Shown here: piece after piece, positions 1 through 20,454 of the stretch | Numbering within the stretch: the stretch's first letter is position 1 | How the letters are laid out: each line of letters opens with the position of its first letter | Origin: a virus | Lineage: Duplodnaviria; Heunggongvirae; Uroviricota; Caudoviricetes | Direction: 5' to 3' (one strand) | DNA: 45,085 bases | Virus record (IMG/VR): IMGVR_UViG_2718217859_000005 | Program-made: the position numbers and the translations under genes | Notes under the pieces: model-generated | Databases searched by the model: none | The model's input: the letters and a program-made list of their open reading frames with translations, nothing else | Told to the model about the DNA's origin: nothing

Positions 1-1314
1 CTAACCCACTGATTTTAATAGGCCTCTTGTGTCACTTTGGTGACTATGGGACATCATTGGGACATAATCTGCCAGCTTCTGATTCAGCATTGCGATCTGT
101 TCTGCATTGCTGTCAGTCATCCATGCTCCGTATACATTGAAAACCATCTGGGCACTTGCATGGCCCATCTGGCTGGCAATGAAGCTTGGATTTGCTCCGG
201 CAGATAATGACCAGCACGCATAAGTGTGTCGTGACTGGTATGCCTTTCGATGCCTGATGCCTGCACGCTTAATGGCTGTTTCCCATGAGTCGCCAATGGA
301 ATCTACCTTGTAGATAAAACCTACCTGTTTGCTTTTTCTAACCACCTGGGGGTTGAATACGAAAGTACATTCATGATTCACTGAACGTCCATATTCACGT
401 AGTTGAACCTTGATGTGGTGCTGCTTACCCAGTCTTGTCATTTCAGCCTGATTTTTCAGGACACTGATAGCGGGCTGGATAAGATGCACAACCCTGTTTG
501 TACTTGCTTCAGTTTTAGGTAGAGTGAACTCACCGAGTTTCGTATAATTGCGCCTGATAGTAATTGTTCCTGCTTTCAGATCGATATCTTCCCAGGCCAG
601 GGAGACCAGCTCACCATGACGCATTCCTGTGTACACAGCCAATGACCACAGGTTTTTTGTCTGCTGATGCCGGCAAGCATCTATCAGGCGAATAAATTCG
701 TCACGAGTTAGCGGATCTGGCTCTGCCCTGGCTTTTTTAAGAGGCTTAATTCCCTCGAAGGGGTTTGCTTCTAAGTAACCGTGATCTGCAGCAAACTGAA
801 ACATTCCAGCGATTGTCGTCATATAATAATTTACAGTAACGACGCTCCGTCCTCTTGCTGGTGCTTTGTCTTTCGTTGAATTCTGATATCCGGTCAGCAA
901 ATCTTTCCTGATATACAGCAATTCCTCTTTGGTCACCGTTGACACCAGTCTGCTACCTCCAATTTTCGGAATCATTGTTCTTGCAACGGACTCATAGCGA
1001 TTGAATGCATTTGCAGAGATTTCCATGCGTTTCAGATCCAGCCACTTTTTTTCAAGTTCTTTCACCGTAATTTCTTTTTTATTTACCCCAAAAGCCTTGA
1101 GGTTAGGAGAGTCAGGGAACTGCGCAGCGTAATCAAAGTTTCCTGTACGAATGGCAAAACATACAGATGTCCGCAGCTCTCCGGCGATCTTCCTGTTCTT
1201 GGCAGTGTCAGGGACACCAAGATTTTCCCTGACACGTTTACCTTTAAAATTAAACCAGATGCGTAATGTGCCACCGTGGTTTTCGACGCCTGTTGGATAT
1301 TTGACTTTATCCAT
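1..1314 (-). CDS. int: Phage tyrosine integrase (lambdoid Int family)
   Basis: 437-aa ORF ending exactly at the window start (stop TAG = reverse complement of nt 1-3). C-terminal region has a tyrosine-recombinase-like catalytic stretch (..RHTYACW..GHASAQMVFNVYGAW..). Sits at the prophage end next to an excisionase-like gene, as in lambda. Confidence 0.9.
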   Translation of the reverse strand: MDKVKYPTGVENHGGTLRIWFNFKGKRVRENLGVPDTAKNRKIAGELRTSVCFAIRTGNFDYAAQFPDSPNLKAFGVNKKEITVKELEKKWLDLKRMEISANAFNRYESVARTMIPKIGGSRLVSTVTKEELLYIRKDLLTGYQNSTKDKAPARGRSVVTVNYYMTTIAGMFQFAADHGYLEANPFEGIKPLKKARAEPDPLTRDEFIRLIDACRHQQTKNLWSLAVYTGMRHGELVSLAWEDIDLKAGTITIRRNYTKLGEFTLPKTEASTNRVVHLIQPAISVLKNQAEMTRLGKQHHIKVQLREYGRSVNHECTFVFNPQVVRKSKQVGFIYKVDSIGDSWETAIKRAGIRHRKAYQSRHTYACWSLSAGANPSFIASQMGHASAQMVFNVYGAWMTDSNAEQIAMLNQKLADYVPMMSHSHQSDTRGLLKSVG

Positions 1315-1369
1315 CGATACCTCCAGACGCCCAAGAGCGATATGAGCTTACATATTTCATGGTATTAAA

Positions 1370-1606
1370 TCACCCAGGTTGTTTGTTTTTCATTGAAGCG
1401 ACCCAGGCATCGATTGCTTTTCTGTTATACATACATTCGCTGGAAGGTTTTGGATTACCGTCAGGCGATACGTGAATATACTCTCTTCCTACCATCCAGC
1501 ATTCTTTCCGGGCCCGGAGAATTGTGCCTGGTTTGAGCCCGGTAATTGCGATAAGAACGCTTTCACAAACCCATTCATTGGGAGCCAGTTGAATCACATT
1601 GCCCAT
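1370..1606 (-). CDS. Putative excisionase-like small DNA-binding protein
   Basis: 78-aa ORF immediately upstream of and co-oriented with int; small and basic. Assignment is positional with weak sequence memory. Confidence 0.5.
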   Translation of the reverse strand: MGNVIQLAPNEWVCESVLIAITGLKPGTILRARKECWMVGREYIHVSPDGNPKPSSECMYNRKAIDAWVASMKNKQPG

Positions 1607-1614
1607 GCATTACC

Positions 1615-1761
1615 TCACACAACACTCAGCCCACGGCAGTGGCACCACACTTCAAACATTCGTTTCACAATTTCACGGCAGTAGAAACCGTCAACATCTC
1701 GCGTCAGGTCATAGCGATTGCCGTAACGCTGGCGTACCCATAGCTCAAACGCTTTATTCAT
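1615..1761 (-). CDS. Hypothetical small Cys-containing protein (48 aa)
   Basis: ORF not in the track (under 60 aa): ATG at 1761 preceded by AAGGA, stop at 1615; MNKAFELWVRQRYGNRYDLTRDVDGFYCREIVKRMFEVWCHCRGLSVV. Packed between neighbouring genes in the same operon. Confidence 0.3.
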   Translation of the reverse strand: MNKAFELWVRQRYGNRYDLTRDVDGFYCREIVKRMFEVWCHCRGLSVV

Positions 1762-1764
1762 TCT

Positions 1765-2007
1765 TTATTTCCTTTTCATGGCCCGTAATTTTTTCAGATG
1801 AGTTTCCTGTTCTGTATCTGCCAGAATTTGTCGGTATTCCTGGTGATCGAGCCGTTCAAACAGTTCATTAAAATCGTTTATTATTACCGACTGTATTCGC
1901 CCATCCATTCTTCTGTACAACACAGTGTTATTTATGCAGCGAATAATTTTTACCGGGTAACCGGCACTGTCGGTATACAGTTGTCCCTGATTAATCAAAG
2001 CGAACAT
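1765..2007 (-). CDS. Hypothetical early-left protein (81 aa)
   Basis: Internal ATG of track ORF 1765..2130 with an AGGAGA RBS (MFALINQGQ...); the longer ORF would overlap the upstream gene by about 90 nt. Confidence 0.4.
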   Translation of the reverse strand: MFALINQGQLYTDSAGYPVKIIRCINNTVLYRRMDGRIQSVIINDFNELFERLDHQEYRQILADTEQETHLKKLRAMKRK

Positions 2008-2038
2008 TTTTTCTCCTGCTCTCTGAATAGTGAGAACT

Positions 2039-2410
2039 TCAGAGTCGTATGTTTGTAGCGGGTTCAATACTGATAATTTCTGCTGAGATAAGCATCCCGG
2101 CAAGCCAGAGTTCTCCGGACAGGTCTTCATCCTGACATATCAGTTCGCCAATATTAATGGTGGCCATGATATCTGTTCCCCCTGTGCGCTCATCCTCGAC
2201 TTCTTCATAAGGCAGTGTTGCGTACAGGCTTTCAATAGCGCAACTGATAACATCCAGTCCGGTCAGATTGCCGCCGACAGTAACTTCGAATGTTTCGCGG
2301 TATTCCCATAACCCGAAAGTTAATCGAACGGTTTGTTTTGTCATGCGTCCGCATGACGTCAGATTCGGGTCATAGTTCATTATTTGCGGTTGGGCATTAT
2401 GGGTGTTCAT
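2039..2410 (-). CDS. Hypothetical early-left protein (123 aa)
   Basis: Track ORF with an AAGGGA RBS upstream of the ATG at 2410; acidic protein with no recognised motifs. Confidence 0.45.
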   Translation of the reverse strand: MNTHNAQPQIMNYDPNLTSCGRMTKQTVRLTFGLWEYRETFEVTVGGNLTGLDVISCAIESLYATLPYEEVEDERTGGTDIMATINIGELICQDEDLSGELWLAGMLISAEIISIEPATNIRL

Positions 2411-2424
2411 CTGCTTTTCCCTTA

Positions 2425-2443
2425 GCCCGGCGACCTGCCGGGC
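2425..2443 (-). promoter_or_regulatory. Intercistronic GC-rich hairpin (GCCCGGC-5 nt-GCCGGGC), no U-tract
   Basis: Perfect 7-bp inverted repeat between the SPFH gene stop (2451) and the next start (2410); not followed by a T-run on the transcribed strand, so more likely an mRNA stability or processing element than an intrinsic terminator. Confidence 0.4.
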
Positions 2444-2450
2444 ATATAAG

Positions 2451-3278
2451 TTATTTAACCTGGATAAATGGTGTACTGGCGCCGCTGGTCATGTATTGCG
2501 GCAGTGTGCCGTTCCATTTATTGATGGCTTCCAGCTCCATAACACCGGGGTTCTGGCGCAGAGCTTCACCGCGTAAACGAATAGCATCGGCTTCAGCCTG
2601 GGCTTTTGTGCGAATCGCATCTGCCTGTCCGGCAGCTTCCGCGCGCAACATGTTGGCTTCCGCTTCGCGCTGTTTAACTTCCTGCTCGCGCTGCAGTGTT
2701 TTCTGGTTCGCCGTGACTTTGGCATTAATGCTGTCGAGAACGGTTGGCGGATACTCCGGCTTACCCACATATGAGAGGCTCATTACCTGAATACCGATGG
2801 GCGTCATTTCTTCCTGAATGTCTTTAAGAGCAGCATCCAGCAGCTCAGACTTGCCGCCGTCGATAAATTTGTCGGTGGTCATTTTGCTGGCCAGTCGGTT
2901 AAGTGCGTCGGCGATCTTCTGACGCAGGTCGGTGTCGGTAATGTCATCCACGCCTTTGCGGTAGGTCTGAAACACCGTGGTAACTTTGGATGGATCAACT
3001 TTGTAGGCCACGCCAATGTGATAGCCGATGGTTGTACCGTCACTCATCTGGAAACTGAACGGTTCATCGTAGGTCTTCATTTGCTTGAAGGTGGGGAAGA
3101 TGTAAACTTCAGTATTCCAGCCAGTCCAGTAGCGACCAACACCGACCACCTCACCGACGCCTTTGTCGTCGCCCAGTTTATTTACCTTGATGCCAACATT
3201 ACCTGGTTCAACGCGATCGCAACCGACAAGGCCAATAGTCGGCAGAACAATGGCTAAAGCAAAAATAATTTTTTTCAT
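2451..3278 (-). CDS. SPFH/band-7 (stomatin/prohibitin/HflK-C-like) family lipoprotein
   Basis: 275 aa. N-terminal signal peptide with lipobox (..PTIGLVGC), then a body with SPFH-like features and a C-terminal Ala/Glu/Arg-rich coiled coil (QREQEVKQREAEANMLRAEAAGQADAIRTKAQAEADAIRLRGEA). AAGGA RBS; ATGA stop/start overlap with the upstream small gene. Confidence 0.75.
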   Translation of the reverse strand: MKKIIFALAIVLPTIGLVGCDRVEPGNVGIKVNKLGDDKGVGEVVGVGRYWTGWNTEVYIFPTFKQMKTYDEPFSFQMSDGTTIGYHIGVAYKVDPSKVTTVFQTYRKGVDDITDTDLRQKIADALNRLASKMTTDKFIDGGKSELLDAALKDIQEEMTPIGIQVMSLSYVGKPEYPPTVLDSINAKVTANQKTLQREQEVKQREAEANMLRAEAAGQADAIRTKAQAEADAIRLRGEALRQNPGVMELEAINKWNGTLPQYMTSGASTPFIQVK

Positions 3279-3463
3279 CTTTTATCCTTAGTGAAAGAAA
3301 GACCCTTGTAAATGGCATAAATGCAGGGCGGGGTCAGAAACGCCAGTGCAAAGCCAGAAATAACTGCTATCGTATCCTTCATGGATATAAGGAACGGAAC
3401 AAGTAATCCGTAAATACATGCGATAATTGCCAGTAAAATTACTATTGTGAAATACAGTCTCAT
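3275..3463 (-). CDS. Small hydrophobic membrane protein (62 aa, two predicted TM segments)
   Basis: Track ORF MRLYFTIVILLAIIACIYGLLVPFLISMKDTIAVISGFALAFLTPPCIYAIYKGLSFTKDKR; translationally coupled (ATGA) to the SPFH gene. Confidence 0.5.
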   Translation of the reverse strand: MRLYFTIVILLAIIACIYGLLVPFLISMKDTIAVISGFALAFLTPPCIYAIYKGLSFTKDKR

Positions 3464-3486
3464 TGGTCTGTGGTATCCCGATATTT

Positions 3487-3594
3487 TTAACCGACTGACA
3501 GCACAATAAAGAGAATAATGATTTCAGTTAGTGTCAGTACTGTGGCAAGGATTAAAATCAGTTTTACTCTGTTTAATTCACGGTTGCTTTTCAT
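3487..3594 (-). CDS. Tiny hydrophobic peptide (35 aa, one predicted TM segment)
   Basis: ORF found by eye (MKSNRELNRVKLILILATVLTLTEIIILFIVLSVG); no strong RBS. First position of the SPFH operon. Confidence 0.3.
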   Translation of the reverse strand: MKSNRELNRVKLILILATVLTLTEIIILFIVLSVG

Positions 3595-3639
3595 ACAAAC
3601 GGTTAGTAAAAAACGGAAGAATTATATTCTTCTTAATAT

Positions 3640-4221
3640 TTAATGTGTCACTGGCGCTTCTGGCATACTATGAGTATTCAGGTCGTTAATCATTTCATCC
3701 AGAAGGAGTTCAAGCCCTTCGCGCCCCATAGCAGAGACAATGAAACCATTATCAGGATCTGCGATGAGCATTTTTTGATAGAGAAACAGAACTCGCCCCA
3801 TGCCTTCAGCTTCGCCATATTTTTCAATAAATCCCCATTCGACATGGTTTTGCAGGGCAATGCGAAGTGGTCCGGGGTAGATACTCAGGCAACCATGTTT
3901 CCCCTTGTAAATAACTGCGCGATCTGTAGTTCCATTATCGTTAGGGATATCAACAGTGCCGTTCTTGTCTTCCTCTTCATTTATAAATGTCGTCACATAC
4001 AGCCATCGCCACTGAGCAACCTTCATATCGACTGAAAATCGTCCCAGCAACCCTGCATCATCGGCTTCAGCAATACATTGCATGATTCTTAAACCGTGTG
4101 AGTTTGGATAATCGTATTCACCATCATTAAGTCGCTGTACGGCATCAACAAAATCAATGGTTGTATTGCCAATTTTTATGCCATGTGGCGTAACTTCTGG
4201 TCGGAACTCTGAATGATTCAT
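3640..4221 (-). CDS. Hypothetical protein (193 aa), unknown function
   Basis: Internal ATG of track ORF 3640..4296 with an AGGAG RBS (MNHSEFRPEV...); ATGA overlap with the upstream 62-aa gene. Confidence 0.55.
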   Translation of the reverse strand: MNHSEFRPEVTPHGIKIGNTTIDFVDAVQRLNDGEYDYPNSHGLRIMQCIAEADDAGLLGRFSVDMKVAQWRWLYVTTFINEEEDKNGTVDIPNDNGTTDRAVIYKGKHGCLSIYPGPLRIALQNHVEWGFIEKYGEAEGMGRVLFLYQKMLIADPDNGFIVSAMGREGLELLLDEMINDLNTHSMPEAPVTH

Positions 4222-4406
4222 AATGTTTGCTCCTTTGCTGGTGGAATAATCGTGTAGCCAGCTCTTTTTGCCATCCACAGAAATGTATCCATGCAACCAA
4301 CGAATTCATTATCCAACAGATGTTTTGAGTAAATTACTTCACCATTTTCAATGGTTAGCAACACTCTTACTTTTTTATGTGTTATGTTTTGTTGTTTTTC
4401 TTCCAT
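4218..4406 (-). CDS. Hypothetical small protein (62 aa)
   Basis: Track ORF 4218..4421 trimmed to the ATG at 4406 (MEEKQQN...), which has a GGGAG RBS; coupled to the downstream 193-aa gene. Confidence 0.45.
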   Translation of the reverse strand: MEEKQQNITHKKVRVLLTIENGEVIYSKHLLDNEFVGCMDTFLWMAKRAGYTIIPPAKEQTL

Positions 4407-4410
4407 TGAC

Positions 4411-4524
4411 TTATCTCCCATATGCTTTGCGCAAATACAGGCTGGCTATATGAAGATAAGAATCTCCATGTTGTGCAATGAGGCAGGCAGTTTTATACGA
4501 TGCCTTATGTTTCAGGAAAGTCAT
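4411..4524 (-). CDS. Hypothetical small protein (37 aa)
   Basis: ORF found by eye: ATG at 4524 with an AGGAG RBS 9 nt upstream; stop overlaps the RBS region of the next gene. Confidence 0.25.
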   Translation of the reverse strand: MTFLKHKASYKTACLIAQHGDSYLHIASLYLRKAYGR

Positions 4525-4602
4525 AACATAATCTCCTGCGAATAAAGGTTGCAACAATCCCCGGCGATAAAACCGTAATAAACATTCAGGGAATATTTAT
4601 TG

Positions 4603-4968
4603 TTATTGCGCTAATTCTTTTTCGGCAGCAGATTTTGCATATTCACATGCAAAATTCAGAATTTCGCTGCCAAGTGTTTTTGTTTCGTGATTACTGGACA
4701 TATGTAATACCTGTGTTGCATGCAATAAATGATAAACATTTACCGCAAATGAGTCCGGCTCCAGACAAATGCCTTCATAATCATCTTGTTGTGAGGTTGT
4801 TTCTGTCATTGCTCCTGAAGTGCATGCGAGTCTGTTTTTGACAATTCTCTTTCCTCTAATCACTATATCGGCAACATCTATTGCCTTTACAACCTCCGGG
4901 AGAAGTTCCGGGTTTGTATAATCAAAGTCATCAACATGGAGAACGGTTATGTTTTCGAACTTTTTCAT
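4603..4968 (-). CDS. Hypothetical protein (121 aa) whose C-terminal half is paralogous to the N-terminal domain of the upstream HTH protein
   Basis: ATG at 4968 overlaps the TGA of the upstream gene (ATGA) and has an AGGAG RBS. Its C-terminal segment (ICLEPDSFAVNVYHLLHATQVLH...LGSEILNFACEYAKSAA) aligns by eye with the N-terminus of the 153-aa protein (LEGLELDSFALNIANLLSAVRTFH...LGIEVMEFIHEYALSAA). Confidence 0.55.
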   Translation of the reverse strand: MKKFENITVLHVDDFDYTNPELLPEVVKAIDVADIVIRGKRIVKNRLACTSGAMTETTSQQDDYEGICLEPDSFAVNVYHLLHATQVLHMSSNHETKTLGSEILNFACEYAKSAAEKELAQ

Positions 4969-5426
4969 GCGCAAGTATCTCCTGCTGTTGGTTTACCGGT
5001 TAACAGCCACATCGGGTCGCAACCAAGGACATTTGCCAGCGGGATAAGCATACTGATAGTTGGTTCATAGTCTCCGCTCTCCCACTGAATGATGATTTCT
5101 TCATCGAGATCGAGCAGCCTGGCGAGTTCGGCGGTTGTTAAGCCGCAGGCTTCGCGTTGGGTGCGAAGGTTAACCAGCCAGCCTTTAGGGAAGGATTGTT
5201 TTTGTTGTGCAGGAGAAGCCGCAGATAGAGCATATTCATGGATAAATTCCATTACCTCAATGCCCAGTTCCTTTGAGCGAGCACAATCCAGAAGATGGAA
5301 TGTGCGTACAGCACTTAGCAAATTTGCAATATTTAATGCAAAGGAATCAAGTTCTAAGCCTTCAAGCGTAACACAGCCGCAGTTGATAAAATTAGTTGTT
5401 TCTGGAGTTGCTTTTAGTGTCTTCAT
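4965..5426 (-). CDS. Two-domain protein: unknown N-terminal domain plus C-terminal XRE-family helix-turn-helix
   Basis: 153 aa; C-terminal segment LRTQREACGLTTAELARLLDLDEEIIIQWESGDYEPTISMLIPLANVLGCDPMWLL matches the XRE/Cro-CI HTH pattern. First gene of a cassette with its own promoter. Confidence 0.7.
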   Translation of the reverse strand: MKTLKATPETTNFINCGCVTLEGLELDSFALNIANLLSAVRTFHLLDCARSKELGIEVMEFIHEYALSAASPAQQKQSFPKGWLVNLRTQREACGLTTAELARLLDLDEEIIIQWESGDYEPTISMLIPLANVLGCDPMWLLTGKPTAGDTCA

Positions 5427-5479
5427 ATACCCACCAACAATTTTAAATTGAATTTAATCAAGTTATAATTGATGGTGCG

Positions 5480-5508
5480 ATATTATGCTTTGAGAAATAG
5501 GCTGTCAA
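5480..5508 (-). promoter_or_regulatory. Near-consensus sigma70 promoter (TTGACA-17 nt-TAATAT) driving the 4965..5426 cassette
   Basis: On the minus strand, -35 TTGACA at 5508-5503 and -10 TAATAT at 5485-5480 with a 17-nt spacer; about 50 nt upstream of the ATG at 5426 and downstream of the cI terminator. Confidence 0.55.
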
Positions 5509-5535
5509 GAAAAAATTGATATCGTGTGTTTTAGG

Positions 5536-5560
5536 CAGAAAAAAACGGGCAAAGCCCGTT
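5536..5560 (-). terminator. Rho-independent terminator downstream of cI
   Basis: Hairpin AACGGGC-AAA-GCCCGTT followed on the minus strand by a 7-8 T run, 12 nt after the cI stop. Confidence 0.55.
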
Positions 5561-5571
5561 AAAATCAAAGA

Positions 5572-6261
5572 CTAACCAAATCTGTTTATATTGAATGGTA
5601 CTGATGAGATCACTTTAGACTGGATATAAAGCAGAGCTAACCCCTCTTTTTCGATGCTCCATGGTTGATAATTGGGGTTATCAGATAACACCATGATTTT
5701 GCTTCCAATTTTTTGAAGTCTTTTCACGTAGCATTCTCCATCAAAACAAAATGCATAAATGCCATCGCCATCAAAATAAGTTACTGTCTTATCAAGAAAA
5801 AGAAGGTCGCCAGGTGAGATTGTGGGAGCCATACTGTCTCCTCTGGCGTTACCTATTTCTATATTTTTGAATGCCCGATTTCCAACAAGGCGTCGGGCAT
5901 ATTCAGGATCAAGTTCTATTGAGCGCACTACATCTATCAAGTCACCACGGACATGAGTTCCATCACCGCAACTAAACTCAACATCAAGGACATTAAACAC
6001 GACGCTATCTGTTCTTGTCTGGTGTTTCTCTTGCGAGGAAAAGGTTGGTGAGGAGTCTTCACCTAAGAACCAGGATTGTGGATAACCGCTAATCTCGGAT
6101 AAATGCGCGAGCTTATCACTCCGTGGAAATGTTTTTCCTGTTGTCCAGTACTGCACTGATTGCGCACTCACACCTAACTTGCGGGCCAGTTGAGCCTGAG
6201 TCCATCCTTTTGCTTTCAGCATCGCGGCTATTCGATTTTCCGTGTTTTTGACGTTCTTCAT
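5572..6261 (-). CDS. cI: CI-type prophage repressor (N-terminal XRE HTH plus C-terminal S24/LexA-like autopeptidase domain)
   Basis: N-terminal HTH (LKAKGWTQAQLARKLGVSAQSVQYW); C-terminal S24 motifs (GDSMAPT with Ser nucleophile, and ..YVKRL.. with Lys). ATG at 6261 has an AGGA RBS; the track start at 6267 is a TTG. Confidence 0.9.
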   Translation of the reverse strand: MKNVKNTENRIAAMLKAKGWTQAQLARKLGVSAQSVQYWTTGKTFPRSDKLAHLSEISGYPQSWFLGEDSSPTFSSQEKHQTRTDSVVFNVLDVEFSCGDGTHVRGDLIDVVRSIELDPEYARRLVGNRAFKNIEIGNARGDSMAPTISPGDLLFLDKTVTYFDGDGIYAFCFDGECYVKRLQKIGSKIMVLSDNPNYQPWSIEKEGLALLYIQSKVISSVPFNINRFG

Positions 6262-6394
6262 GACCAAATCCTGTGGGTTTCTTTACAAGGATAAATCTTT
6301 ACTTGATTTTAGTGTATTCGATCCTTTTGCAACTTGCATGTTAATTTAAACTTGATGTATTTTTGATTTATAAAGTTAATATTGGTGCTTTGTT
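6262..6394. promoter_or_regulatory. Divergent immunity control region (putative PRM/PR and operators)
   Basis: 133-bp AT-rich spacer between divergent cI and cro-like genes. Contains repeated ACTTGAT/TTGAT(T)T motifs (near 6301, 6351, 6364), an AAGGAT/ATCCTT inverted repeat, and a candidate rightward promoter (TTGATG..TAATAT near 6352-6378). Confidence 0.4.
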
Positions 6395-6694
6395 ATGAAA
6401 GGAAATGATTACGACAAACTTCGTGCATTAATTGCGCAAAATGCCATAGCGCGAAATCTTGGTGTGACGCCGCAAGCGGTGAATCAGTGGTTTTCAAAAA
6501 ACACAATTCCTGCTCGTTTCGTTTTACGCGTATGTGAAGTAGTTGCATGGAAGGTCACGCCACATGGCTTAAGGCCAGATCTTTATCCTCACCCTGAAGA
6601 TGGAATTCCTGATTCGTTACGCAAAATTTCAAATCCAAGCCTAGCGCGCACGGAAGATGGGCAGAGTGATTCATCAGAAATGTCCACGCGATGA
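6395..6694 (+). CDS. Cro-like HTH regulator
   Basis: 99-aa ORF divergent from cI, first gene of the rightward operon; HTH-like segment IARNLGVTPQAVNQWFSKNTIP. Confidence 0.65.
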   Translation: MKGNDYDKLRALIAQNAIARNLGVTPQAVNQWFSKNTIPARFVLRVCEVVAWKVTPHGLRPDLYPHPEDGIPDSLRKISNPSLARTEDGQSDSSEMSTR

Positions 6695-15528: not shown

Positions 15529-15604
15529 GGCCCTTTAGCTCAGTGGTGAGAGCGAGCGACTCATAATCGCCAGGTCGCTGGTTCAAATCCAGCAAGGGCC
15601 ACCA
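15529..15604 (+). tRNA. tRNA with CAU anticodon (Ile2/lysidine-type or Met), ileX-like
   Basis: 76 nt; 7-bp acceptor stem GGCCCTT/AAGGGCC, anticodon loop CTCATAA, T-loop TTCAAAT, encoded CCA. Closely resembles E. coli ileX as recalled. Confidence 0.85.
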
Positions 15605-15605
15605 A

Positions 15606-15682
15606 CCGCCACTAGCTCATCAGGAAAGAGAGTCAACCCTTTAAGTTGAGAGTGCGAGGTTCGAGTCTCCGGTGGCGGTCCA
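15606..15682 (+). tRNA. Degenerate tRNA-like element (possible pseudo-tRNA; anticodon-loop CCTTTAA)
   Basis: Perfect acceptor stem (CCGCCAC/GTGGCGG) and anticodon stem (TCAAC/GTTGA), but a mismatch in the D-stem and in the T-stem, and C instead of U at position 33. Confidence 0.4.
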
Positions 15683-15684
15683 GT

Positions 15685-15760
<76 letters not shown>

Positions 15761-15763
15761 TAT

Positions 15764-15838
<75 letters not shown>

Positions 15839-16305: not shown

Positions 16306-16731
16306 ATGTTTGGTATTTTCAAAAAGAAAACCCGCAAGGCCATTACCGAAGTGAAGAAGATGGAGAACCGCGACGCAGTGGAGGCGACCGTCTGGGGTGC
16401 GTATTCCATTGCATATGCTGACGGCACCTGTGACGCGAAAGAAATCGCGGTACTGGAGAAAACCATTGCAGCACTTCCTGCCTTTGCGCCGTTCTCGGGT
16501 GAGATTGCACAAATGAGTGCAAATATCCGCGCCCGTTATGAAGCATCGCCGCGTTCTGCCAATGCCGAAGCCCTCCGCCAGCTGGCTGATATTGCAGGTA
16601 CTGATGACGCAGTTAATGTGCTGTGCCTGTGTCTGGATATCGCTGACCAGGATGGTATTGGTCCGGATGAAGAAGCACAGCTCAAGAAAATTGCTCAGGC
16701 GCTGCAGCTACCACTGGAGCAGTACCTGTGA
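16306..16731 (+). CDS. TerB-like domain protein
   Basis: 141 aa; AAGGA RBS. All-helical pattern aligning by eye with TerB (VEATVWGAYSIAYADGTCDAKEIAVLEK...; ...VLCLCLDIADQDGIGPDEEAQLKKIAQAL). Confidence 0.65.
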   Translation: MFGIFKKKTRKAITEVKKMENRDAVEATVWGAYSIAYADGTCDAKEIAVLEKTIAALPAFAPFSGEIAQMSANIRARYEASPRSANAEALRQLADIAGTDDAVNVLCLCLDIADQDGIGPDEEAQLKKIAQALQLPLEQYL

Positions 16732-17489: not shown

Positions 17490-17661
17490 TTAGTTTCCTT
17501 ATTTATGCCTTGCTGGTGATGTTCTGAAAAGTATAAATGATAATTTTGAATGTAAACCATAGAGCAGAATTATTTTTCTGATGTATGAGGTATCAGGACC
17601 ATCAGTAATTAACGGGTGGCTTTTTTATTGTTGTCAGCTTCCGGATAACGGGAGACGGGGT

Positions 17662-17877
17662 ATGTACCAGATGGAAAAAATCACAACAGGTGTGTCATAC
17701 ACCACGTCAGCGGTGGGGACGGGATACTGGTTACTGCAGCTGCTGGACAAAGTCTCTCCGTCCCAGTGGGTGGCAATAGGCGTGCTGGGGAGTCTGCTGT
17801 TTGGTCTGCTGACGTACCTGACGAACCTGTATTTCAAAATTAAAGAAGACCGGCGTAAGGCGGCGCGGGGAGAGTAG
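17662..17877 (+). CDS. S: Class II holin, phage 21 S-type (pinholin), with dual-start motif MYQM
   Basis: 71 aa from the ATG at 17662 (GGGAGACGGGG RBS). Strong resemblance to S21 as recalled (..[34 protein letters not shown]). Confidence 0.8.
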
Positions 17878-17880
17878 ACG

Positions 17881-18522
17881 ATGAACCATGAAGAAATGAA
17901 TCAGCGCATAAGTTGCCTGGAAAATGAAATCACTGAACTGAATAAAAAACTGTCGGTGCTGATGGTTTCTGAAGATGAAAAAAAACGCCGCGATGAGCAG
18001 GAAGCAGCGTTTTACGATGATTGCATCAAAATTGCTCGCAGGACCTTTGAGAAGATTTTGCAGGAAAAGTTTTTACCGACCGCATTGTCAGAAAAGTACT
18101 CCATTACAGTTAAAAGTGCCGGAGAGGAAGGCAATAAACGTTATTTTATTGCGTCTGCACCGGATAAAGACCAGGAATGGGGGGATAATCGGCCATCTTT
18201 TATTGTGACAAGCGATGACTGGAATATCACGATCCGTGAAGATGGAAAAGTAACACCAGCATCGCACCAGCACAGTGAGGCGCTCATTGAATTTGCCATT
18301 GATTACCTGAAGAACAATAAAAAGCAGGGACTAATGAAGCGCATTGGTCGTTGCATGGGATATCTGCAGGTAGCTGCTGAGATTGAAGCGCTGGCCAGTG
18401 GTGCGGACAAGGATGCAGTTGTGCGGGAGGCTCTTCTTCGTGATTTTGATAATCCGCCCTTTAAAAAAGTGCCGGCTTACTGGTTTCATCCAGGACTGAC
18501 TTATCTTAAAGGACGTATATAA
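17881..18522 (+). CDS. Hypothetical protein (213 aa) with N-terminal coiled coil, inserted between holin and endolysin
   Basis: Starts 4 nt after the holin stop with a GGGAGAG RBS; N-terminal heptad-like helix (MNHEEMNQRISCLENEITELNKKLSVL...); no lysozyme motifs. Confidence 0.6.
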   Translation: MNHEEMNQRISCLENEITELNKKLSVLMVSEDEKKRRDEQEAAFYDDCIKIARRTFEKILQEKFLPTALSEKYSITVKSAGEEGNKRYFIASAPDKDQEWGDNRPSFIVTSDDWNITIREDGKVTPASHQHSEALIEFAIDYLKNNKKQGLMKRIGRCMGYLQVAAEIEALASGADKDAVVREALLRDFDNPPFKKVPAYWFHPGLTYLKGRI

Positions 18523-18531
18523 GCTGGCTCG

Positions 18532-18846
18532 TTATCTGTTGCCGGATAATCGACGGAAGATGCGTTCTTTTTGTGATTTGGCGTAATGATGATCCCACTC
18601 ACATTCAAGGTAGTTTAATTCTTCGTTTAACCAGTCATTTATATTGTCTTTCAGACGTAGAAGCATGGCTGGTGTTAATATTCTGGACATAATGTCGAGA
18701 GTTGGTGGTGTGAGGTGTCCATACGGCTCAGCCTGAATGGATTTTACTGCTTCGTGGTTTTGCTGAATGAGTTTAAGGAATGCTGATTTAAATTGTTCAT
18801 TCATGGCCTGCATGCAGGCGGTATATTTATGTTCATCGTTATACAT
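18532..18846 (-). CDS. Hypothetical protein (about 104 aa), convergent with the preceding gene
   Basis: Track ORF 18532..18900 trimmed to the ATG with a GAGGA RBS (MYNDEHKYTA...). Confidence 0.4.
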   Translation of the reverse strand: MYNDEHKYTACMQAMNEQFKSAFLKLIQQNHEAVKSIQAEPYGHLTPPTLDIMSRILTPAMLLRLKDNINDWLNEELNYLECEWDHHYAKSQKERIFRRLSGNR

Positions 18847-18974
18847 TGCTAAATCCTCGACGGGAATTGTCAGATATATTTCAGCCATCAGGTAAAACAC
18901 CAGTGCCCACCACTGGCGGGCTGAAGACTTAACATATCCAGGGATTCGGAACCGATAAATCCTGATAAATATCC

Positions 18975-19508
18975 ATGAACACCAAAATCAAATACGGTCT
19001 GTCGGCTGCCGTTCTGGCGCTGATTGCCGCAGGTGCGCCTGCGCCTGAAATCCTCGACCAGTTTCTGGATGAAAAGGAAGGTAACCACACCACGGCATAC
19101 CGTGATGGTGCGGGGATCTGGACCATCTGCCGTGGAGCCACCCGGGTGGATGGTAAGCCTGTTATTCCTGGCATGAAGCTGTCAAAGGAAAAATGCGACC
19201 GGGTTAACGCCATTGAACGTGACAAGGCGCTGGCATGGGTGGCGAAAAACATCAAAGTGCCACTGACTGAACCCCAGAAAGCGGGGATCGCGTCATTCTG
19301 TCCGTATAACATTGGCCCCGGTAAGTGTTTCCCGTCGACGTTTTATAAACGAATTAATGCAGGCGATCGCAGGGGAGCGTGTGAAGCGATTCGCTGGTGG
19401 ATTAAGGACGGTGGCAGAGACTGCCGTATCCGCTCAAATAATTGCTACGGTCAGGTATCCCGGCGAGATCAGGAAAGTGCGCTGGCGTGCTGGGGAATCG
19501 ACAGATAA
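18975..19508 (+). CDS. R: SAR (signal-anchor-release) endolysin, T4-lysozyme-like glycoside hydrolase (phage 21 R-type)
   Basis: N-terminal weakly hydrophobic Gly/Ala-rich SAR segment (YGLSAAVLALIAAGAPAPEIL), then a catalytic E-8aa-D-5aa-T triad (EGNHTTAYRDGAGIWT). Pairing with a pinholin is the phage 21 arrangement. Confidence 0.85.
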   Translation: MNTKIKYGLSAAVLALIAAGAPAPEILDQFLDEKEGNHTTAYRDGAGIWTICRGATRVDGKPVIPGMKLSKEKCDRVNAIERDKALAWVAKNIKVPLTEPQKAGIASFCPYNIGPGKCFPSTFYKRINAGDRRGACEAIRWWIKDGGRDCRIRSNNCYGQVSRRDQESALACWGIDR

Positions 19509-19601
19509 GCAGAATATTTTGCTGAAAAATGACGTTGACCAACGCGGACGGATAACACGAAATCCTGCGAACTGGCAAAACCTAAGTGAATAAAAGTAAA
19601 A

Positions 19602-19640
19602 CCCCGTTTGTTGGCAGCAAGCGGGGTTTTGTGTTTCTGA
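19602..19640 (+). terminator. Rho-independent terminator-like hairpin after the endolysin gene
   Basis: AACCCCG-loop-CGGGGTT followed by TTTTGTGTTT. Confidence 0.45.
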
Positions 19641-19663
19641 CCTTGGATAAGGCAAGGGAGAAC

Positions 19664-19846
19664 ATGGAAAAGTATAAACGAATTCTGTTGAGGTTGACTA
19701 TGAAAAACGGCCTTGAACTGAAAGCGCCTGTAACTGATGACATCAGCAGAGCGCTGGCTTTTGCTATTAAGTGGGTGGCGGTCGGTATTGCTGTGTCTCC
19801 GATGCTGTATGGGCTGGCAAAACTGGTCATTGCGTTGAAATCGTGA
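19664..19846 (+). CDS. Small protein with C-terminal TM segment (60 aa)
   Basis: Internal ATG of track ORF 19586..19846 with a GGGAGAA RBS; the longer ORF would span the hairpin at 19602-19640. Confidence 0.3.
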   Translation: MEKYKRILLRLTMKNGLELKAPVTDDISRALAFAIKWVAVGIAVSPMLYGLAKLVIALKS

Positions 19847-19858
19847 AGAGGATTAAGC

Positions 19859-19990
19859 ATGTCAGACAAGCTCATAACGCTGGCGAAGATCCTCTGTGTA
19901 ATCGTCGGCATTTCATTTTCACTAATGCTGGTTGCTCTTAGGCTGGATGATGTTGTCTTCGTCGGGGATGCTGGGGTGAGGGGGATATGA
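19859..19990 (+). CDS. Small membrane protein (43 aa)
   Basis: ORF found by eye; GAGGA RBS; stop overlaps the Rz start (ATGA). Confidence 0.3.
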
Positions 19991-20454
19991 ACCGTGTTCT
20001 GTGTGTGGTGATTATTGTCCTGCTGGTAGCCTGTGGTGCGCTTGGTCTGGGGCTGAATCATTACCGCGATAACGCCATCACCTACAAAGCGCAGCGCGAT
20101 AAAAAAGTCAGAGAGCTGGAGCTGGCGAACGCGACAATTACTGATATGCAGATACGCCAGCGTGATGTCGCTGCACTTGATGCCAGATACTCGAGGGAAT
20201 TAGCCGATGCGAGAGCTGAAAATGAAACTCTGCGTGCTGATGTTGCCGCTGGTCGTAAGCGCCTGCGGATCAACGCCACCTGCTCCGGTACCGTGCGTGA
20301 AGCCACCGGCACCTCCGGCGTGGATAATGCAACCGGCCCCCGACTGGCAGACACAGTTGAACGGGATTATTTCACTCTCAGAGAGCGGTTGATGATGATG
20401 CAGAAGCAGCTGGAAGGGGCGCAGGAATATATCCGCACTCAGTGTATTAACTAG
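19987..20454 (+). CDS. Rz: Rz-type inner-membrane spanin (i-spanin)
   Basis: 155 aa; N-terminal TM segment ([20 protein letters not shown]) and periplasmic coiled coil; contains the embedded Rz1 frame. Confidence 0.8.
20222..20392 (+). CDS. Rz1: Rz1-type outer-membrane lipoprotein spanin (o-spanin), embedded in the +1 frame of Rz
   Basis: [15 protein letters not shown] lipobox followed by a Pro-rich segment ([24 protein letters not shown]); entirely within Rz in another frame. Confidence 0.7.

Follow-up and report, generated by a model that had tools for sequence, protein, structure and literature searches.

The 45,085-nucleotide Caudoviricetes record IMGVR_UViG_2718217859_000005, referred to here as the window, carries near its left end a small cassette consisting of a gene for an SPFH/Band-7 lipoprotein and, directly upstream of it, a gene for a small protein with two transmembrane (TM) segments. 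The left end of the window is a lambdoid prophage arm on the minus strand, with an integrase gene (1-1314), an excisionase gene (1370-1606) and small accessory genes; a cI-like S24 repressor gene (5572-6267) faces a cro-like gene (6395-6694), and the right half of the window holds lambda-like structural genes. The left arm showed 97% identity to phage phiP27 and 93% to several phages carrying Shiga toxin (Stx) 2a, and an identical stretch in Escherichia coli 08-00022 adjoins yecN and a DUF72 gene. Three open reading frames (ORFs) were read on the minus strand of the cassette, encoding 275 aa (2451-3278), 62 aa (3275-3463) and 35 aa (3487-3594). The cassette sits between the cI-like repressor gene with its PL-like promoter and xis-int, and is co-oriented with xis-int, in agreement with the early-left location assigned by an earlier reading of the letters alone (the sequence-only reading). 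That reading had also joined all three ORFs into one operon, of which the SPFH gene and the 62-aa gene stood up to analysis and the 35-aa ORF, which appears near-neutral and dispensable, did not.

The 275-aa product is an SPFH/Band-7 lipoprotein, with lipidation predicted from its N-terminus. It matched the whole Pfam Band_7 profile (PF01145) over residues 22-208 (E 8.8e-31, 107.7 bits against a cut-off of 23.6) and PHROG 200, annotated 'lipoprotein' (E 2.4e-114). Its N-terminus reads MKKIIFALAIVLPTIGLVGC|DR, so that a signal peptide (residues 1-19) is followed by the lipobox LVGC with Cys20 and by Asp21 at position +2. The SPFH domain (about residues 20-175) is followed by a long helix (178-242) and a C-terminal tail with the conserved motif KWNGxLP...PF. 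When the lipobox pattern [LVI][ASTVI][GAS]C was applied to the family, it was present in 110 of 150 representatives. An AlphaFold2 model (mean pLDDT 75) comprised an SPFH alpha/beta domain at 20-175, one 65-residue helix at 178-242 and a short tail, and a Foldseek search with this model returned prohibitin, erlin1/2, HflK/C, stomatin and flotillin as the top matches (E about 1e-13, probability 1.00), with QmcA also matched. By sequence, the closest solved relatives were HflK (E 2.8e-4) and prohibitin-2. The lipobox, the SPFH features and the long C-terminal helix that the sequence-only reading had described were thus borne out, and homologs of the protein are carried on phages and are not confined to core genomes. 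The gene has a good Shine-Dalgarno sequence, AGGA, 6 nt 5′ of its ATG, and across 48 loci, the sample used for all substitution counts given here, it had accumulated 162 synonymous and 22 non-synonymous changes.

Two more specific identities for the 275-aa protein were rejected. It is neither HflK nor HflC, since it scored 24.9 bits against TIGR01932 (hflC, equivalog cut-off 134.4) and 23.1 bits against TIGR01933 (hflK, cut-off 159.4), and since the locus and its relatives hold one Band_7 gene only, with no adjacent paralogous pair. Public annotation of the gene is uneven: L05 of phiP27 (2480-3307) and many copies in Stx2a phages are called 'serine protease'. No protease family or fold was found in the Pfam, NCBIfam and Foldseek searches, which returned the SPFH domain only, and the label was therefore set aside. 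The start called for the neighbouring phiP27 gene L04 (2068-2511) overlaps the 3′ end of the SPFH gene, and the 62-aa partner is left without annotation in that phage.

The 62-aa gene overlaps the start of the SPFH gene by four nucleotides (ATGA) and is thereby translationally coupled to it, as the sequence-only reading had noted. Its product has hydrophobic segments at residues 6-22 and 32-48 and a basic C-terminus, with a predicted N-in/C-in topology, and the loop that would face the periplasm carries the motif P-x-L-I-S-x-x-D-T, a version of the shared loop motif P-x-[LM]-[IV]-S-[AS]-x-[DS]-T. It matched PHROG 1130, annotated 'membrane protein' (E 2.5e-23), and the gene is called by PGAP as WP_001242070.1. 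With 13 synonymous and 12 non-synonymous changes, where 25% synonymous would be expected, the gene is under moderate purifying selection. No match to NfeD (PF01957) or any other Pfam family was found at E <= 0.1, no meaningful NCBIfam match was obtained, no protein in the PDB was matched by sequence at E <= 10, and the protein is too short for an OB fold. Likewise, no holin or toxin family was matched in the Pfam, PHROG and NCBIfam scans.

The association of the small protein with the SPFH lipoprotein proved to be conserved. Homologs of the 62-aa protein fell into 35 clusters, with identity down to 63%, in E. coli, Salmonella, Klebsiella and Enterobacter, and in all contexts read, which were early-left prophage arms, the gene lay directly 5′ of a Band_7 gene and overlapped it. 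The order partner-SPFH recurred in lambda-like, P2-like, P1-like, N4-like and rV5-like phages: gp11 of P88 and a 78-aa ORF of RCS47 overlap the start of the SPFH gene, and the same arrangement was seen in Enterobacter and Klebsiella prophages, in Burkholderia PhiBt-E264.1 and in the virulent phages Raoultella Ro1, Aeromonas Gekk3-15 and N4-like vB_Eco_SPSP. PHROG 1130 was matched by eight of 10 sampled upstream proteins (E 1e-10 to 1e-26). A set of 33 environmental viral contigs from a different SPFH subclade was scanned with an independent hidden Markov model (HMM) built solely from seven enterobacterial and Aeromonas partners, and in 29 of them a partner homolog was placed immediately 5′ of the SPFH gene. 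In the window itself, PHROG 1130 and PHROG 200 are matched by adjacent, co-oriented genes with the small gene upstream.

Further small ORFs were seen around the pair elsewhere. In one environmental subclade, the two-TM partner and the SPFH gene are separated by an extra one-TM ORF of 43-47 aa (1825-1968 in loci L126, L128, L129 and L131; 1846-1977 in L130 and L132); its sequence is unrelated to that of the 35-aa ORF of the window. Tiny accessory peptides are thus possible in principle. In two unrelated virulent families, a gene of PF17420 ('superinfection exclusion gene product 17', the family of P22 gene 17) is followed by a small two-TM ORF and then by an SPFH lipoprotein gene, namely in N4-like vB_Eco_SPSP (L101, 2407-3831, plus strand) and in Kuttervirus PhiSH19 (L104, 1641-2958, minus strand), where the 72-aa two-TM ORF (2432-2650) is without annotation. 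A literature search on P22 gene 17 yielded nothing useful.

The strongest tie between the two products comes from natural gene fusions. The two-TM module was fused in frame to the N-terminus of the SPFH protein in at least 18 of 150 representatives when judged by eye and in 13 of 150 by HMM, and the fused proteins run in the order two-TM module, retained signal-like helix, Cys and SPFH domain. The AlphaFold2 model of one natural fusion comprised three N-terminal helices followed by the SPFH domain. Such 'Rosetta-stone' fusions indicate that the two-TM protein and the SPFH protein act as one unit, and the fused forms also suggest that the partner is N-in/C-in and that the SPFH domain would lie on the periplasmic side of the inner membrane. 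One fused gene (P0310, within the region 7001-11809 of L095) was found on a 115-kb contig of virulent-phage appearance, directly 5′ of a 725-aa gene that has no recorded Pfam match and is rIIA-like only by its position before a PF26926 rIIB gene.

In contrast to the other two genes, the 35-aa one-TM ORF at 3487-3594 is not supported as a real gene and is probably not one, given its near-neutral substitutions, its absence from other cassettes and its lack of annotation. Its 8 synonymous and 17 non-synonymous changes correspond to 32% synonymous against 27% expected. No family match was found in the Pfam, PHROG, PADLOC and NCBIfam scans, no Shine-Dalgarno sequence was present in the upstream letters, and PGAP leaves the ORF uncalled. 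Among 79 near-identical viral loci, about 28 have unrelated sequence in its place, as do the P88, RCS47 and Enterobacter cassettes. An identity as a type I toxin or other small toxic peptide was rejected on the basis of the near-neutral substitutions and the lack of a toxin family or antisense RNA; an Rfam scan of 1300-6500 for antisense and small RNAs returned only a chance snoRNA match below threshold.

On the minus strand, a PL-like promoter (TTGACA-17-TAATAT, 5508-5480) lies 3′ of the cI-like repressor gene and of its terminator at 5544-5560; judged from a consensus scan and the gene order, leftward early transcription probably starts there and runs through the cassette as far as xis-int. 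In Enterobacter prophages, where the pair is coupled to the gene before it, no promoter dedicated to the pair was evident. Two hairpins bracket the cassette on the same strand. The upstream one (3608-3632), just 3′ of the stop codon of a 218-aa gene, is AT-rich, with 7 bp GAAGAAT-ata-ATTCTTC followed by CGTTTTTT and with a TATAAT hexamer in the loop. By its letters it looks like a weak terminator; its predicted fold was no better than that of shuffled sequences (z -0.33), and the consensus scan made no call there. The downstream one (2425-2443), immediately behind the stop codon of the SPFH gene where the cassette ends on its 3′ side, is GC-rich, with 7 bp GCCCGGC-aggtc-GCCGGGC (-17.1 kcal/mol, z -2.1). 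It has no U-tract and is not a canonical terminator; it could instead stabilise the transcript or mark a boundary of recombination. In RCS47, a search upstream of the cassette for the P1 C1 operator located no sites besides those at the dmt promoter, and C1 control of this P1-like copy is therefore not claimed.

Relatives of the SPFH protein were widespread. They were found in 775 of 50,697 phage records and in 575 of 5,426 complete E. coli genomes, in which 241 of the matched places were on plasmids. The carriers include obligately lytic phages (Kayvirus, Schitoviridae, Ackermannviridae, Vequintavirinae and Ounavirinae), jumbo phages and haloarchaeal viruses. The mature SPFH protein was 96-98% identical among the lambda-like, P2-like (P88) and P1-like (RCS47) copies, whereas the signal peptides of the same three copies were only 32-42% identical and their two-TM partners 25-46%. 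A near-fixed mature domain next to a diverged signal and a diverged partner places the recombination junction at the lipobox cysteine. In RCS47, the pair occupies the hypervariable tciABC slot, whose context in P1-like phages has been described (PMC9603915, PMC10695390) and in which TciA is TerB-like (PMC9603915). The module of an N4-like phage is flanked by annotated terminators. Distant phage SPFH genes can also be preceded by a coupled small membrane protein, as in Kayvirus MbpV-MbpS and Caulobacter Karma gp183-gp182.

Taken together, these observations led us to favour, with about as much confidence as doubt, a reading in which PHROG 1130 and PHROG 200 together form an accessory module of two genes that is portable among phages and builds an inner-membrane scaffold or cage during lytic growth. 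The pair would be transcribed as part of the early-left operon once the prophage is induced or a cell is infected. The SPFH protein would be exported and held by a lipid anchor at the inner membrane, facing the periplasm, and it may assemble into a ring or cage by analogy with HflK/C, prohibitin, erlin, stomatin, flotillin and QmcA, because all solved proteins that combine an SPFH domain, a long helix and a C-terminal tail do so. The two-TM protein would act as the integral-membrane subunit, in the role that NfeD has in classical SPFH-NfeD operons. Because the module moves among phages that differ in lifestyle, receptors and lysogeny circuits, it would be expected to act during lytic growth on a conserved host inner-membrane target or lipid patch and not on phage-specific partners. 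While the phage grows lytically, the likely net effect would be to partition or stabilise the inner membrane of the infected cell, or else to sequester a membrane protein of the host. Among possible clients FtsH is the foremost candidate, though unproven, and it is a legitimate one because HflK is the closest solved relative by sequence and has a matching topology.

Several points weigh against this interpretation. The partners share 25-46% identity while the mature SPFH proteins share 96-98%, which leaves the short conserved loop motif or the signal helix as the basis for any specific contact between the two. DL54 and phiEa104 lack a PHROG 1130 partner, and one fused homolog has bacterial, non-phage surroundings. 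In the fusion model, the membrane part is of low confidence (pLDDT 47-64) and uninformative on packing. Asp at +2 with Arg at +3 is not the strongest known signal for avoidance of Lol sorting, and the residue at +2 differs among family members. We infer oligomerisation, lipidation and localisation, and a weak promoter upstream of the 35-aa ORF, judged from the sequence, is possible. The literature searched contained no experiment on any member of the family, and a paper from 2026 states that the reason for phage carriage 'remains unclear' (PMC13239085).

Among other explanations, a function in superinfection exclusion or membrane defence, in which scaffold and partner would block DNA entry by a secondary phage or envelope damage in the manner of T4 Imm and Sp or of lipoprotein exclusion factors, and so shield an infected or lysogenic cell, appears unlikely. 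Small inner-membrane and lipoprotein products are typical of exclusion genes, the pair behaves as accessory cargo (in the tciABC slot of a P1-like phage and between terminators in the N4-like phage), it adjoins the PF17420 gene in the two virulent families mentioned above, and one fused form adjoins the rIIB gene and the gene that is rIIA-like by position. These neighbour associations amount to a few cases, however. Exclusion factors are usually specific to one entry route, whereas the module occurs in phages with very different receptors and injection machinery, and no promoter evidently active in a lysogen was seen. A PADLOC-DB 2.0 scan of eight local proteins gave no match at E <= 0.1 for the 275-aa, 62-aa or 35-aa products, and our literature searches on SPFH proteins together with exclusion, anti-phage defence or phage infection gave only annotations and speculation. 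The many lytic carriers and the position in the early-left operon argue against both a lysogeny-specific and a prophage-defence role, and the suggestion of the sequence-only reading that the genes form a defence or abortive-infection module was not supported, given the PADLOC result, the operon position and the lack of an evident own promoter in related prophages. The same reading had proposed a bias of lysis-lysogeny decisions through FtsH. If the cage mimicked HflK/C, capturing or modulating FtsH and shifting the stability of CII/CIII-type regulators, it could bias the decision of its own or of incoming phages. The HflK match among solved structures and the weak HflC and HflK NCBIfam matches would fit this mechanism, as would the position of the cassette in the PL operon, where lambda keeps cIII, the match of a neighbouring gene of that operon to the PHROG 'CII-like regulator' and a periplasmic orientation like that of HflK/C (PMC2636767). 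Earlier papers have suggested the same for SPFH genes of other phages, while noting that such genes are also present in lytic phages (PMC8540360, PMC10269572). Nevertheless, the scores were five to seven times below the HflK/HflC equivalog cut-offs, a single gene with a lipid anchor takes the place of a K/C heteropair with TM helices, the family is abundant in obligately lytic phages and present in haloarchaeal viruses, and nearly the same mature protein serves phages with unrelated lysogeny circuits. In addition, incoming phages would not be affected by genes expressed from an early operon that is under repression. We thus consider it quite unlikely that the locus is an HflK/C mimic, and as a role of the whole family an FtsH-dependent lysis-lysogeny bias is not supported.

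Two further explanations were considered. A surface or virulence factor of lysogenic conversion would be made in the lysogen, reach the outer membrane or vesicles and alter the envelope or immune signalling. The window prophage was found in Shiga toxin-producing E. coli (STEC) and in pig or cattle isolates, and a prophage-borne SPFH protein of Pasteurella multocida, PM0222, which was likened to the present family by its description and not by sequence, was detected in cultures and outer-membrane vesicles, and mutants lacking it are altered in capsule, serum sensitivity, biofilm and mouse virulence (PMC9872710). Here, however, an inner-membrane location is indicated by Asp at +2 and by the three-TM fused forms, the module occurs in virulent phages, and related prophages provide no promoter of its own, which together make conversion improbable. 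A device for lysis timing or toxin control, in which holin-like or toxic small hydrophobic proteins would be restrained or organised by the SPFH scaffold, seems very improbable. The size of 62 aa, the two TM helices and the basic C-terminus are typical of class II holins, and in Kayvirus mbpS follows holA-lysK-mbpV in the lysis region (PMC7150955). The 62-aa protein nevertheless matched no holin or toxin family, and the holin, endolysin and spanin genes of the window lie about 14 kb away at 17581-20454 on the opposite strand; an identity as a class II holin was rejected for these reasons, despite the two TM helices. No antisense-RNA family was found, and the 35-aa ORF is near-neutral. The in-frame fusions fit a subunit and not a restrained toxin, so that the picture of toxic peptides held in check by a scaffold, also put forward by the sequence-only reading, is not supported.

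Beyond the favoured reading of a portable lytic-growth scaffold, we tentatively entertain a broader view, possible but well short of probable. Many tailed-phage families (lambda-like, P1, P2, N4-like, rV5-like and jumbo, with Kayvirus by analogy) may share a homo-oligomeric periplasmic 'viral SPFH cage' with a dedicated two-TM subunit, which would wall off a patch of the inner membrane early in infection. Such a cage could insulate the infected cell from membrane-directed attack by pore-forming abortive-infection effectors, superinfecting phages or premature depolarisation, or it could cage a host protease or translocon. If so, it would be a new class of host-takeover machinery and a natural minimal system in which to study client selection by SPFH cages. 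SPFH scaffolds such as prohibitin, stomatin, flotillin and HflK/C are a very active structural topic, and the role of most bacterial members is unclear. Phage SPFH genes are carried by therapeutic candidates (Kayvirus, Kuttervirus and N4-like phages), and where annotation had offered vague labels such as 'lipoprotein' and 'serine protease', the present analysis defines a two-component unit of about 1 kb that is open to cloning and testing. Capture of FtsH or another host membrane machine by the cage would represent a new viral takeover strategy, and protection of membranes would bear on phage resistance to membrane-targeting defences.

Other features of the window were observed in passing. Two overlapping early-left genes on the minus strand (4603-4974 and 4965-5426) share a common homologous segment, and both matched PHROG 4587 and PHROG 5451; the latter gene also contains an HTH_3 domain and matched the PHROG 'CII-like regulator' (E 2e-77). 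A cluster of four tRNA genes (Met, Lys, Thr and Gly) lies at 15529-15838, and 3′ of it a plus-strand gene at 16306-16731 matched PHROG 632 'tellurite resistance' (E 6e-65). This spot is approximately where we would expect stx in Stx-converting relatives; no stx-like match was found among eight ORFs scanned between 14789 and 20454.

The pair was compared with the closest known systems. The HflK/HflC-FtsH complex of E. coli (PDB 7vhp/7vhq, 7wi3 and 9cz2) has the same combination of SPFH domain, long helix and C-terminal tail and faces the periplasm at the inner membrane, but it is built from two TM-anchored paralogs, whereas the phage has one gene for a predicted lipid-anchored protein and a separate two-TM partner. 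SPFH-NfeD operons (QmcA-YbbJ, PDB 8z5g; YuaF-FloT; archaeal stomatin-NfeD) likewise couple a scaffold gene to a small membrane partner, occasionally as a fusion; unlike theirs, the phage partner is without the NfeD/OB fold, and the phage SPFH domain would be periplasmic while theirs is cytoplasmic. In Kayvirus (the Staphylococcus phage K/G1 group), MbpV-MbpS also presents a phage SPFH protein behind a translationally coupled small membrane protein. MbpS, however, is only about 25% identical, has a TM anchor without a lipobox and is encoded in the lysis region of a virulent Gram-positive phage, and MbpV has one TM helix and does not belong to PHROG 1130; MbpS has been speculated to aid Sec export of Tgl (PMC7150955). 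PM0222 (Pmorf0222; OAZ06802.1) of P. multocida resembles the present protein by its description as a prophage-encoded HflK/C-like SPFH protein. It differs in being reported in outer-membrane vesicles and acting as a TLR1/2 agonist and virulence factor, and it is the sole phage-borne SPFH protein with experimental phenotypes in the literature searched, which point to a lysogen-expressed envelope or virulence role (PMC9872710). L05 of phiP27 and gp11-gp12 of P88 are the same genes as those described here; at the nucleotide level phiP27 is 97% identical, and the mature proteins encoded by P88 and RCS47 are 96-98% identical to that of the window. The phiP27, P88 and PHROG entries are annotations only ('putative serine protease', 'lipoprotein' and 'membrane protein'), and the literature searched held no description of the pair as a unit or of its function. 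The genes have been in the databases since phiP27 was sequenced and fall into named PHROGs; what is new, as far as the literature searched goes, is that a putatively periplasmic viral SPFH protein has a conserved two-TM partner of a non-NfeD kind, in some cases fused to it, and that the pair is portable.

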